This document shows, in pieces, positions 39,401-42,400 of a stretch of DNA of 64,000 nucleotides (positions are counted from its first letter, which is position 1; each line of letters starts with the position of its first letter). A program made the position numbers. The stretch lies in assembly GCF_057098645.1 (NCBI RefSeq), contig NZ_CM169472.1. One strand, written 5' to 3'.

Positions 39401-42400
39401 TAACCGGCCATCTGAGATGGTCGACAGGTTAACATAATTACTGCCGTTTAGGGCCACGCGCTCAGCCCGCAGGTGAAAACGCATCTATCACCTTGTGATC
39501 GACACCTTCATTCTCCCCCGCCAGTTCGGCACTGAGCTTCGCCATAAACTCGACTAAAAATTGCGCGTTGTGCTGCGCCAGCTGCTTGCCTCTTACGGTT
39601 TGCATGGTTTGCGGTAGCTTCAGCAACTTAGTCTGGAAATGATCCAGCGCGTAGCGTTTATCATCAAGCGGGCGATACTGTGCGAACGGATCTTCGCCAT
39701 CAAACAGCGCCACGCCCAATGCCCCTGAAACGGCAAACACGCGCGCCAGGCCAATCGCCCCCAGGGCTTCCAGCCGATCCGCATCCTGGACGATTTTAGC
39801 TTCCGTGGTTAAGGGGGCGATTTGCGCGCTGAAACTGTGAGCGGCAATGGCATGACAAACGGCCTCGATTTTCTCCGCCGGAAATTGCTCGAACTCTTCA
39901 CGGAGCAGGCGACGCGTCTCTTCTGCCGCCAGGATTGAAGAACGCTGCCGTTGCGGATGATTTTTCGCCAAGCTCACAATATCGTGAAAATAACAGGCGG
40001 TTAAAATCACCAGCATATCGACGTCATCATCTGCCGCCAGCTTCTGTGCCGTAGCCCAGACGCGGCGAAAATGACACACGTCATGGGCCGCGTCCTGGTG
40101 CTGATGATGGTTTTTCAACCAGTTTTCGAACTCTGCCTGCCAGTGTTGTAAGTCCATACGCGCTCCGTTGCCAAAGAGTCGCCACCTTAGCAGTTTTTAT
40201 TCATAGCGTCTGCTACGTGCGGGACGAGGTCGGGTGTACCAGGCAATGCTGCCTAACAATGCCCCGACCAGAGCCATAAATAAAAATCCGACCAGTGCCC
40301 CTAACCACTTTCCCGCGGTAGAGCCTAAATCGCTTTCAAATCCCGACACGGGGGCATCGGGGATCCGGCTCATCACCCAGATGTAACGCGCCATTGCCCA
40401 GACGAAATAGCCACACCATGTATAGAAAGCCCACAAAGCCAGTTTGCCACCAGGGCTGCGAGAGAGTCTCTCTTCCATCTTTGTCGAACCGTATTCCATT
40501 TTGAGATAACCCGGAAAATTCAGACTTAGTACTATTATGTGATAAAAATCACATTTTTCCACATTGAATGAGCCAGTCAAGACTCAATCATTTTTTGAAC
40601 AAATAGATAATTTTTGCGCAACGGCAGTGAATACAAGAAAAATCGTTTTGAGCGATTTTATTTATCTTTGATATCGGCTTTATTAATTCATTCAATCAAT
40701 ATATTAGCACTGATTACAATTATACCTTTTTATTATTCTGTGTCATGATGCCTCCGTTATTAGCCTTTTATCGTCTTGTTTATATTTTTTGGGCCGGCAT
40801 GATGCCGGCTTTTTTTTATGCCTTCATTAATGTGCGCGTGATCACACCAGCCGTTTAGCGCAACAATCATTGATGCCCCCTATCTTTCCGCTCAACTCAT
40901 AACATATTGATATACATTCATAATTTTCATGAATATTTATATTTAGAATTCATAATTCTGAATTATATTAAATGGATTGGAAACATTTTGAAATCTTTTA
41001 AATATATTTGTTACACGTAATCCTTAAAATAAAATGAACTTCATAGAATAGTATCCAAATGTGCTTTTTTTGGATAACGGCACTTATTGATATATTCATG
41101 AAGATTATAATCACAAGGGAATACATAATGAAAAGAAAAGTTCTAGCAATGCTGGTCCCGGCGTTATTAGTTGCTGGCGCAGCAAATGCGGCTGAAATTT
41201 ATAATAAAGATGGCAATAAAGTTGATTTCTACGGCAAGATGGTTGGCGAACGCATCTGGTCAAATACTGATGATAATAACAGCGAAAACGAAGATACCTC
41301 CTATGCTCGTTTCGGTGTTAAAGGTGAAACCCAAATCACCAGCGAACTGACTGGTTTTGGTCAGTTTGAATACAACCTCGACGCCAGCAAGCCCGAAGGT
41401 GAAAACCAGGAAAAAACCCGTTTAACCTTCGCCGGTTTGAAATATAACGAGTTAGGATCATTTGACTATGGCCGTAACTACGGTGTTGCTTATGATGCCG
41501 CAGCTTATACCGATATGTTAGTTGAATGGGGTGGCGATTCCTGGGCTTCCGCTGACAACTTCATGAATGGTCGTACCAACGGTGTTGCAACCTACCGTAA
41601 CTATGATTTCTTTGGCCTGGTTGATGGTCTTGATTTTGCGATTCAGTACCAAGGCAAAAACAGCAACCGTAGCACTAAGAAACAAAATGGTGACGGCTAT
41701 GCGTTGTCTGTAGACTACAACATCGAAGGTTTTGGTTTTGTAGGTGCATATAGCAAATCTGATCGTACTAATGAACAAGCTAGTGACGGCTACGGTGATA
41801 ACGCTGAAGTGTGGTCATTAGCAGCCAAGTATGATGCAAATAATATCTATGCAGCAATGATGTACGGTGAAACCCGCAACATGACCGTTTTGGCTAATGA
41901 TCATTTTGCAAATAAAACCCAAAACTTTGAAGCTGTTGTACAGTATCAGTTCGACTTCGGTTTACGTCCGTCTTTAGGCTACGTATATTCCAAAGGCAAA
42001 GATCTTTATGCTCGTGATGGACATAAAGGTGTTGATGCTGACCGCGTAAATTATATCGAAGTTGGTACCTGGTACTACTTCAATAAGAACATGAACGTCT
42101 ACACAGCATACAAATTTAACCTGCTGGATAAAGACGATGCAGCGATTACCGATGCCGCAACTGATGACCAGTTTGCAGTTGGTATCGTCTACCAGTTCTA
42201 ATCAGCCAACGCGCCGCGGCGTGTTACTGTAAAACTGAACACTAGCCTGAGTTCGTCCCTCATCGAACTCAGGCTTTTTTATTGGCATTTCATCTCCATC
42301 TGCGGCACACGCAATTGCCAAAGCTTATCGATACACCCCCTTACCCTGCCCCTCCTGGCACAATAACATCAACCAGCTACTCTTCAAGCTAACACCCAAA

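Follow-up and report, generated by a model that had tools for sequence, protein, structure and literature searches.

Gene content and regulatory features of the yedS locus

The analysed window is a stretch of 64,000 nucleotides from contig NZ_CM169472.1 of assembly GCF_057098645.1, and it carries a porin gene at 41128..42201 on the plus strand. The gene encodes 357 amino acids followed by a stop codon, its product is RefSeq WP_001400372.1, and we denote it as the class A1 allele of the yedS locus. The longest reading is one ORF at 41059-42201 (+), with an in-frame ATG at 41128 and a stop codon ending at 42201. The first-pass annotation had described a complete porin ORF here and had named an internal frameshift or stop as the observation that would speak against it. 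When ORF analysis was used to look for both in 41128-42201, no internal stops and no frameshifts were present, and the single uninterrupted 357-codon ORF matched the Pfam model Porin_1 (PF00267) end to end (profile positions 1-337 of 337, E = 7.7e-122, 407 bits, cut-off 23.7). The porin DNA is 100% identical in the O145 strain RM9872, in which PGAP calls 'porin' WP_001400372.1 at the equivalent coordinates. The in-frame ATG further upstream, at 41059, was considered as a start codon and rejected, because 41128 is where the homologues, the signal peptide and the PGAP annotation start. A Shine-Dalgarno-like AAGGGA, read from the sequence, lies at 41115..41120 (+), 7 nt before the ATG.

The gene order yedA-vsr-dcm-yedJ-drpB-rseX-porin-hchA agrees with that of O145 RM9872 and K-12, and the placement of the porin between yedR and hchA, as initially proposed, was borne out. 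Upstream, drpB (yedR) occupies 40197..40478 on the minus strand, divergent from the porin (NCBIfam NF038392 DrpB, E = 1.2e-44; also annotated by PGAP in RM9872). Downstream, a truncated hchA is located at 42793..43341 (+) and matches positions 3-183 of 287 in the NCBIfam HchA model. Its alignment with intact hchA breaks at ~43325, where a P2-like prophage interrupts the gene, and the attR core of this prophage at 43322..43340 corresponds to an attR of 19 nt that is annotated for Klebsiella phage 4LV2017. The hchA-prophage junction was present in no complete genome, and we considered whether the window could be chimeric at this point. A public draft assembly has the same arrangement of porin, truncated hchA, ogr and gpD; therefore, the artefact was rejected.

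The first-pass annotation had also described long AT-rich intergenic regions on both sides of the porin gene, which holds for the upstream side only. The upstream spacer of 649 nt has a GC content of 30.7%, falling to 22% in its last 230 nt, against a window average of 51.7%, whereas the downstream spacer of 591 nt has 43.1%, equal to that of the porin gene (43.0%), and is not notably AT-rich. The upstream 649 nt are ~97-98% identical to those of K-12 and contain the sRNA gene rseX with its own terminator at 40727..40816 (+), which matches Rfam RF01401 at full length (99 bits, gathering threshold 50, E = 1e-13). This gene is co-oriented with the porin and lies 311 nt upstream of it, and the K-12 annotation has rseX at the corresponding position. 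The remaining spacer at 40817..41127 (+; 28.9% GC) is expected to hold the porin promoter. The top sigma-70-like site is TTGTTA-16-TAAAAT at 41008-41035, which we treat as a candidate promoter only, because the promoter scan yielded no excess of sigma-70-like sites over shuffled sequence. A CRP-like palindrome read from the sequence, TGTGCgcgtgaTCACA, is located at 40831..40846 and differs from that of K-12 in one spacer base; at the homologous K-12 coordinate, 2033766, an in-vitro CRP footprint carries the label 'yedS' (PMC12871828). The terminator scan placed an intrinsic terminator at 42244..42281 (+), 43 nt past the stop codon, with a 12-bp stem containing 7 G-C pairs and a T-run, and its sequence is the same in K-12.

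Family, fold and pore of the encoded protein

The protein begins with a signal peptide of 21 aa (41128..41190, +), delimited by alignment with the precursors of OmpF, OmpC, OmpN and PhoE, and cleavage would take place before AEIYNK. The mature chains of PDB porins begin at query residue 22, and the signal region appears as a helix at residues 2-17 in the AlphaFold2 model. The sequence of the signal peptide is identical across all E. coli allele classes at the locus. At the other end, the protein terminates in YQF. The signal peptide and C-terminal aromatic residue described in the first-pass annotation were both confirmed, with the N terminus and the final VYQF aligning with OmpF, OmpC and PhoE.

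The AlphaFold2 model contains 16 strands (pLDDT 81.8, pTM 0.78), and predicted strands 5 and 6 are joined by a 37-residue segment (116-152) with short helices. The fold is thus predicted to be a 16-stranded β-barrel with a long L3 loop inside the lumen, which presumably assembles into trimers. In Foldseek comparisons, TM-scores normalized by query and target length were 0.86/0.91 for OmpK35, 0.87/0.93 for Omp35, and 0.83-0.89 for OmpF and OmpC, and phmmer aligned the protein with OmpK35 across residues 1-357 (E = 6.8e-150). All six OmpF constriction residues have identical counterparts in the alignment, within the motifs YGK, YAR, TRL, YRN, TDM and VEW; in OmpF, we take these to be the basic residues K16, R42, R82 and R132 facing the acidic L3 residues D113 and E117. 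The L3 motif is VEWGGD instead of PEFGGD.

Among the models of individual porins, the OmpF equivalog NF007446 of NCBIfam gave the highest of the three scores (448.3 bits, under its cut-off of 583), followed by OmpC NF007841 (430.9 bits, under 484) and the PhoE equivalog NF007544 (424.3 bits, under 599); no OmpN model was among the matches. The identity of the protein is 61% to K-12 OmpF and 58% to K-12 OmpC, and its gene sits elsewhere than the asnS-ompF-aspC locus. As such, the earlier assignment to the OmpC family stands at the level of the superfamily but not for OmpC itself. By its profile match, modeled fold, pore residues and signals, the gene product qualifies as a putative general porin of the enterobacterial OmpF/OmpC/PhoE superfamily.

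Alternative porin alleles at the rseX-yedS locus

In K-12, the yedS pseudogene (b4496; formerly b1964-b1966) occupies the same position, between drpB/rseX and hchA, and its description as a disrupted pseudogene was correct: codon 162 is a TAG stop, and one nucleotide is deleted. Alignment did not, however, support the idea that the window gene is the undisrupted counterpart of this copy: the mature part shares only 57% DNA and 60% protein identity with K-12 yedS and belongs to another lineage. The divergent part forms a cassette at 41225..42174 (+) with ~57% DNA identity to both K-12 and O157:H7, while its flanks, comprising the promoter region, the Shine-Dalgarno sequence, the signal peptide, the last 9 codons and the terminator, are 92-100% identical to K-12. 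When the K-12 lesions are repaired, the resulting YedS has 397 aa compared with 357 aa in the window porin, shares 60% amino acid identity with it, and carries PEFGGD in L3 where the window porin has VEWGGD. In a phylogenetic tree, the repaired K-12 YedS clusters with OmpN (72%) and OmpC (67%), and the window porin falls in a separate clade, where it groups with the porins that Citrobacter, Enterobacter and Klebsiella oxytoca have at this locus. Taking b4496 as the definition of YedS, the window gene has the locus and the regulatory region, and it lacks orthology in the mature protein. Judged by these alignments, the window porin is a positional allele of yedS and not its sequence orthologue.

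The alleles at the locus fall into at least three classes whose protein sequences are 32-40% different from one another. All three have a promoter, 5' UTR and signal peptide in common on one side and a C-terminal strand and terminator on the other. Class A is OmpK35-like with 357-371 aa and includes the window allele A1, class B has 352 aa and occurs, for example, in Nissle 1917, and class C, the K-12 type, is OmpN/OmpC-like with 395-397 aa. Indels between alleles fall in loop regions, and the differences lie mostly in predicted loops L2 and L4-L8, among them an insertion of 14 aa in L6. Relative to the window, changes in the A1 allele of strain EH01-18-02 are confined to the 5' half, and those in the A2 allele to the 3' half. 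The shared ends together with the differing mature domain point to homologous recombination within the flanks as the way in which cassettes were replaced, so that, as far as sequence comparison goes, the yedS-locus alleles are alternative cassettes at one locus. Exchange appears to proceed via recombination in these conserved ends, with further mosaicism within and between classes.

The exact protein WP_001400372.1 is found on at least 1000 public contigs. A gene at least 99% identical to that of the window occurs in 31 of 5426 complete genomes, mostly O145:H28, and class A as a whole in roughly 1600 of the 5426 (~30%), a rough estimate from evenly spaced rows of the match list. Class frequencies were taken from coverage counts and such rows and are rough because megablast identity bands, which mix full-length matches with short ones to the conserved first ~100 nt, are unreliable for class counts. 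Outside E. coli, the protein was compared with the porins of E. fergusonii (85% amino acid identity), of Enterobacter and Citrobacter at the same locus (80%), and of the K. oxytoca group (74%), and the Citrobacter, Enterobacter and Klebsiella homologues adjoin dcm-yedJ(-drpB). The K-12 type was found in E. albertii, E. whittamii, Escherichia sp. E1V33, Escherichia sp. MOD1-EC7003, and the GTDB species representative 'E. coli' E69. The class polymorphism seems to be old, since the locus holds class A-like porins in Citrobacter, Enterobacter and Klebsiella, and E. albertii and E. whittamii have class C there. Decayed copies other than that of K-12 occur in 14EC029 (frameshift and stop) and O157:H7 NE1127 (flagged as frameshifted), and a further copy is interrupted by IS1, and such repeated decay at the locus fits weak selection for function.

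These observations lead us to suggest, with a confidence just short of even, that the rseX-yedS locus is a porin-switching site, at which at least three deeply divergent lineages are exchanged as cassettes and an old polymorphism could be maintained by selection on the loops by phages, colicins or immunity. In the searchable literature mentioning yedS, we found no description of porin-cassette exchange at this site.

Probable silencing, rival explanations and relation to known porins

By analogy with K-12, the porin is probably kept off most of the time. In K-12 RNA-seq, H-NS represses 'RseX and surrounding areas' (PMC8313858). The regulatory region in the window is AT-rich (22-29% GC compared with 51.7% for the window), and, considering that H-NS dependence is known only for K-12 RseX and its surroundings, H-NS may likewise act on the promoter region at 40817..41127. 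Activity of yedS or of a YedS-like porin has been described for other strains: in the passages of two articles that refer to the carbapenem-resistance case of Warner et al. [quoted passage not shown]

Direct pairing of MicF or RseX at the yedS start is unsupported, because the predicted energies were no better than those of shuffled targets while the controls worked. For micF nt 1-33 against yedS -40..+30, the energy was -8.0 kcal/mol, and 77% of shuffles did as well; for rseX nt 1-45 against the same region, it was -11.4 kcal/mol, and 90% of shuffles did as well. The positive controls micF-ompF (-27.1 kcal/mol) and rseX-ompC start region (-23.4 kcal/mol) were matched by 0 of 500 and by 2.4% of shuffles, respectively. 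MicF or RseX may still pair at other sites or act indirectly.

We favor, with good confidence, a joint reading in which the gene encodes an intact general-diffusion porin of a divergent yedS-locus lineage that was probably swapped in as a cassette and would normally be silenced. The Sec signal peptide would direct export, and the mature chain would form a 16-stranded barrel, presumably trimeric, in the outer membrane, with L3 folding into the barrel so that the conserved basic cluster and the acidic L3 residues form the constriction. Homologous recombination between the conserved ends would have exchanged the mature domain, and additional recombination would have taken place inside the gene. 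H-NS on the promoter region of 22-29% GC would normally silence the porin, like the rseX surroundings in K-12 and like OmpS1. If expressed, the porin could provide an extra route for small hydrophilic solutes, including β-lactams and carbapenems, and its variable loops could be met at the cell surface by phages, colicins and antibodies.

A gene that is intact but cryptic, never usefully expressed and drifting neutrally toward decay as in K-12, would make its intactness devoid of physiological meaning. The independent pseudogenizations in K-12, 14EC029 and NE1127, and by IS1 in a further copy, are what such drift would leave behind, and the AT-rich promoter region, the H-NS repression of the K-12 neighborhood, and the fact that the adjoining RseX was undetectable in the wild type for decades (PMC8313858) agree with a locus that is seldom read. 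Yet an identical 357-aa protein is present on at least 1000 contigs, the pore-lining residues, signal peptide and C-terminal Phe are all conserved, and intact syntenic homologues exist in three other genera. Moreover, differences between alleles are not even but concentrated in predicted surface loops, which suggests selection on an exposed protein, and a YedS-like porin was detected in O26 STEC, with yedS called active in the passages that refer to the Warner case. We therefore regard a cryptic gene as rather unlikely.

The origin of the cassette could instead be a recent import from an Enterobacter- or Citrobacter-like genus that, in the O145 lineage, took the place of a native yedS of the K-12 type. 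A cassette 57% identical to K-12 and O157:H7 between flanks of 97-99%, the 80% identity to the porins found at this locus in Enterobacter and Citrobacter, and the K-12 type in E. albertii, E. whittamii and the three further Escherichia representatives would all be expected from such an event. However, a protein identity of 80% is too low for it, class A is carried by ~30% of complete E. coli genomes, which come from many sources, and is found at 85% in E. fergusonii, and it is diversified and mosaic within E. coli. Considering this low identity and the wide, mosaic class A, an old polymorphism fits better, and we give recent import little credence. Still less probable, in our view, is a specialized channel or receptor, such as a PhoE-like anion or phosphate channel, a phage or colicin receptor, or an adhesin. 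The clade separate from OmpF, OmpC and PhoE, the hypervariable loops, and the L3 motif VEWGGD (as in OmpK35) instead of PEFGGD might hint at specialization, and porins have been discussed as possible adhesins (PMC9731836), but no specialized family model outscores the general porins, the constriction residues are those of non-specific porins, and the closest structure is OmpK35, the OmpF-type porin of Klebsiella.

Contrary to what the first-pass annotation had implied, an intact porin at this position is not in itself unusual, since each of the three classes has many intact alleles. The finding is ordinary and already known, because ~30% of complete E. coli genomes carry class A, the protein, typical of O145:H28, is catalogued as WP_001400372.1, and a functional YedS in clinical isolates was published in 2013. 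The gene taken singly is of little consequence, and the point of use to annotators is the naming: 'yedS', 'porin OmpC' (PGAP, for the K-12 type), 'OmpF' (UniRef, for the window allele) and 'OmpS1' are used for non-orthologous cassettes at one locus, and therefore K-12-based inferences about YedS fail to transfer to strains with the window allele. For STEC of O145:H28 and related types, an additional silent porin may alter the entry of β-lactams and carbapenems once OmpC or OmpF has been lost, and may also serve as another surface antigen or phage receptor. If selection maintains the cassettes, the locus would offer a compact natural setting in which to study how a surface protein is swapped with regulation and export signals left undisturbed.

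Compared with known systems, the arrangement of an sRNA gene beside a porin gene is familiar: rseX lies beside the yedS-locus porin as micF lies beside ompC and micC beside ompN. Here, rseX precedes the porin on the same strand rather than diverging from it, and its pairing with the yedS start is not predicted. Warner et al. 2013 (Antimicrob Agents Chemother 57:1935) reportedly described a functional YedS in a carbapenem-resistant clinical E. coli, together with control by MicF. The YedS of that isolate is, like the window gene, an intact yedS-locus porin outside K-12, and it was reportedly translated; the reported MicF dependence finds no support in predicted pairing at the conserved yedS translation start.

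Salmonella OmpS1, for which silencing and LeuO antagonism have been reviewed (PMC4264507), is a minor porin that, like the window gene, has a long AT-rich regulatory region; H-NS/StpA keep OmpS1 quiescent, and LeuO and OmpR activate it. 'yedS (ompS1)' has been used as a pair of synonyms (PMC2731931), and a K-12-type E. coli protein is named 'outer membrane protein S1' in one source. The name belongs to the K-12-type allele and not to the window allele, and the link is one of names in the literature; a YedJ-anchored scan of genome contigs returned Escherichia, Mangrovibacter, one Klebsiella sp., Erwinia and distant taxa, and no Salmonella locus.

OmpF, OmpC, PhoE and OmpN have the Pfam family, fold, constriction residues and C-terminal signal in common with the window porin, but they are only 58-61% identical to it, and the window porin forms a separate clade. 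The nearest characterized relative is OmpK35 of Klebsiella pneumoniae, at 67%; OmpK35 and Omp35 of K. aerogenes together (PDB 9hn1, 5o77 and 5o78) give 64-67% identity. OmpK35 and Omp35 share with the window porin the L3 motif VEWGGD and a 13-residue stretch near the C terminus. The porin at dcm-yedJ-drpB in the K. oxytoca group, 74% identical to the window porin, is a protein separate from OmpK35. OmpK35 forms a large non-specific channel; it is presumably the OmpF orthologue of Klebsiella and located elsewhere in the genome.

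Uninterrupted porin gene at the yedS position

The sole ORF listed across the porin gene spans 41059-42201 (+). Within it, an in-frame ATG at 41128, preceded by a ribosome-binding site (AAGGGA, 41115-41120, +), opens 357 codons and a stop ending at 42201. When the reading frame was searched from 41128 to 42201, no internal stop or frameshift was found, so the coordinates and intactness claimed in the first-pass annotation hold, as do the N-terminal signal peptide, the aromatic residue (Phe) at the C-terminus and the placement between yedR (drpB) and hchA, though hchA is incomplete in the window. 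The product covers the Pfam model Porin_1 entirely (1-337/337, E = 7.7e-122) and aligns over its full length with porins of solved structure, among which OmpK35 ranked top (E = 6.8e-150, query residues 1-357). The gene is 100% identical in DNA to that of E. coli O145 strain RM9872, where PGAP annotates a "porin" (WP_001400372.1) at the same coordinates, and the exact protein, entered in RefSeq and UniRef as "porin" and "Outer membrane protein F", occurs on at least 1000 contigs. The neighboring yedA, vsr, dcm and yedJ are also 100% identical to RM9872 within the compared part (38128-40478), and the left part of the window (1-37900) matches O145:H28 genomes. The window as a whole (64,000 nt) yielded no tRNA gene.

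The K-12 locus had been described as a disrupted pseudogene; in agreement with that description, codon 162 of the yedS pseudogene, which holds this position in K-12 MG1655, is a TAG stop, and a 1-nt deletion follows it. The window porin could be regarded as the intact form of this K-12 gene. However, this was ruled out because K-12 YedS, at 397 aa when both lesions are repaired in silico, shares only 60% identity with it; the repaired protein clusters with OmpN (72%) and OmpC (67%). Our analysis confirmed that the window locus carries an intact porin whose lineage differs from that of the K-12 remnant, and that this porin is common in the species. The interpretation given in the first-pass annotation is supported in part.

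The occurrence of two unlike porins at the same "yedS locus" is explained by a segment-wise DNA comparison with K-12 and O157:H7. The identity is 98.3-98.6% over dcm-yedJ-drpB, which lie on the minus strand 5' of the porin, 97.2-97.5% over the upstream spacer and 94-97% over the first 97 nt of the porin gene, which encode the signal peptide and the start of strand 1. It is 57% from 41225 to 42174, and then 92-94% from about 27 nt before the porin stop through the terminator, 98-99% in the downstream spacer and 97.2% in the 5' part of hchA (to 43320), on the downstream side. Considering that the 57% segment is enclosed by conserved ends, the mature domain behaves as a cassette.

Allele classes and the history of the locus

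The sizes of the allele classes were roughly estimated from megablast searches in which three allele types were compared with 5,426 complete genomes, using full-coverage counts and evenly spaced rows of the hit list. Class A1, to which the window porin belongs (97-100% DNA identity to it), comprises ~760 genomes, class A2 (~91% identity, 371 aa, with a 14-aa insertion in loop L6) ~850, class B (352 aa, ~74% identical in DNA and 68% in protein, including Nissle 1917) ~1,000, and class C, the K-12 type, 1,662 at full length; genomes outside these classes gave a partial match or none. Only 31 genomes within A1, mostly O145:H28, reach at least 99% identity to the window. Large full-length clusters were present in the protein collection for each class, and the class A and class B copies that we inspected individually were all intact. 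Disrupted copies are known too, in K-12, 14EC029, O157:H7 NE1127 and a further genome (hit H35) with an IS1 insertion. The class C allele of NE1127 (locus L044, 3001-4187) is flagged as frameshifted, and as drpB is flagged likewise, a sequencing error is possible. In the Chinese clinical isolate 14EC029 (locus L008, 1501-2561), a class A allele with a frameshift and a stop adjoins IS30. The inactivations in NE1127 and 14EC029 are independent of each other.

The alleles are mosaic. Compared with the window, the differences in the A1 allele of EH01-18-02 are confined to the 5' half and those of A2 to the 3' half, from about 41724. The amino acid differences within class A fall mostly in predicted loops L2 and L4-L8, and the E. 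coli protein P0021 stands between two classes, with 81% identity to class A and 87% to class B. Outside E. coli, porins 74-80% identical to the window porin are syntenic in Citrobacter, Enterobacter hormaechei and the Klebsiella oxytoca group, where yedI-yedA-vsr-dcm-yedJ, with or without drpB, precede the porin. A relative in E. fergusonii is 85% identical at the protein level. The class C type is at the locus in E. whittamii, E. albertii and three other Escherichia representatives, namely sp. E1V33, sp. MOD1-EC7003 and E69, the GTDB species representative named "E. coli". Since the two porin lineages, window-like and class C, occupy the same place across genera and Escherichia species, both are old at this position.

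A functional, unbroken YedS has already been reported from outside K-12, and the window protein is in the databases; the finding as stated is therefore known and ordinary. We found no description of a cassette-like, multi-lineage polymorphism of the locus in the searchable literature mentioning yedS. That the yedS locus constitutes such a porin polymorphism is a tentative reading, to which we give slightly less than even credence.

Flanking regions and putative expression

Long AT-rich spacers had been noted on both sides of the porin. This applies to the upstream spacer (40479-41127), which has 30.7% GC, and 22% in its last 230 nt, against 51.7% in the window, but not to the downstream spacer (42202-42792), where the 43.1% GC equals that of the porin gene. 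The upstream spacer contains the rseX sRNA gene with its own terminator (40727-40816, +; Rfam RF01401, 99 bits vs a gathering score of 50), in the same orientation as the porin and at the place homologous to annotated K-12 rseX. Three E. coli porin genes each adjoin an sRNA gene targeting other porins (ompC/micF, ompN/micC and yedS/rseX). Between rseX and the porin lies a CRP-like palindrome, TGTGCgcgtgaTCACA (40831-40846), whose K-12 counterpart (coordinate 2033766, labelled "yedS") is listed in a 2026 preprint (PMC12871828) as footprinted by CRP in vitro. Downstream, the porin gene ends in front of a strong intrinsic terminator (42244-42281). In the complete genome OU349848.1 (locus L047), an identical porin is preceded not by drpB-yedJ-dcm but by unrelated genes, encoding a 265-aa protein without assigned identity, a HAD hydrolase and a xanthine/uracil permease, which suggests that a rearrangement has its breakpoint in the spacer between rseX and the porin.

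On the other side, the hchA ORF (42793-43341) ends after 182 aa, matches only positions 3-183 of the 287 in the HchA model and retains about 177 native codons, interrupted by a P2-like prophage from ~43325 that includes ogr (43413-43664, -) and gpD (43722-44822, -). This prophage shares 97% identity with Klebsiella phage 4LV2017 (Peduoviridae), and a 19-nt core (43322-43340) corresponds to the annotated attR of that phage. As only 12 of the 19 core positions match hchA at the junction, in an alignment read by eye, a secondary attachment site is suggested. The same phage type adjoins ybjL in E. coli HS. None of the 5,426 complete E. coli genomes in RefSeq has the hchA-prophage junction. Its presence in the public draft assembly GCA_015676175.1 (locus L048) indicates that the junction is real and rules out an artefact of the window.

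Porin transcription would start in the 22-29% GC spacer 3' of rseX and would normally be repressed by H-NS. We infer this repression because the spacer is ~97-98% identical to that of K-12, where RseX "and surrounding areas" rise upon H-NS loss, especially when StpA is also lost (PMC8313858), and by analogy with OmpS1, a quiescent porin of Salmonella that H-NS/StpA silence and LeuO releases (PMC4264507). One study takes yedS and ompS1 as synonyms and reports that sigma-E induction lowers porin transcripts, including yedS mRNA (PMC2731931). Surface proteomics of O26:H11 STEC recorded a porin with "50% homology" to K-12 YedS at 8-fold above O157:H7 EDL933 (PMC9731836), which suggests that the products of alleles other than the K-12 one can be synthesised. 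If expressed, the window porin would add a diffusion route. Pairing of MicF or RseX with the conserved translation start was unsupported by our predictions, in which both positive controls worked. Control of YedS in Warner et al. 2013 was reportedly MicF-dependent. The carbapenem-resistant clinical isolate of that study is described, in the citing passages of PMC4048246 and PMC11267920, as having an active yedS porin gene and an inactivated marR.

Porin type and relation to known porins

The label "OmpC-family" given in the first-pass annotation is appropriate at the superfamily level only. The window porin falls below the curated family cut-offs of OmpC (431 vs 484), OmpF (448 vs 583) and PhoE (424 vs 599), and its protein identity to OmpC (58%) is no higher than to OmpF (61%), OmpN (59%) and PhoE (59%). 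The AlphaFold2 model, built with 54 homologues (pLDDT 81.8, pTM 0.78), has 16 strands, and an L3 segment of 37 residues separates strands 5 and 6. In Foldseek, the TM-scores by query/target length were 0.86/0.91 for OmpK35 and 0.87/0.93 for Omp35, and lower (0.83-0.89) for OmpF and OmpC. When aligned with OmpF, whose constriction is formed by K16, R42, R82, R132, D113 and E117, the window porin has identical residues at all six positions. The product is thus predicted to be exportable and foldable with conserved pore-lining residues, and its gene is equipped with a ribosome-binding site and a terminator of its own. The sequence and predicted fold of the window porin are those of a competent general porin, of OmpF/OmpK35 type. 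Its nearest characterised relative is OmpK35 of Klebsiella (67%), with which it shares the L3 motif VEWGGD instead of PEFGGD.
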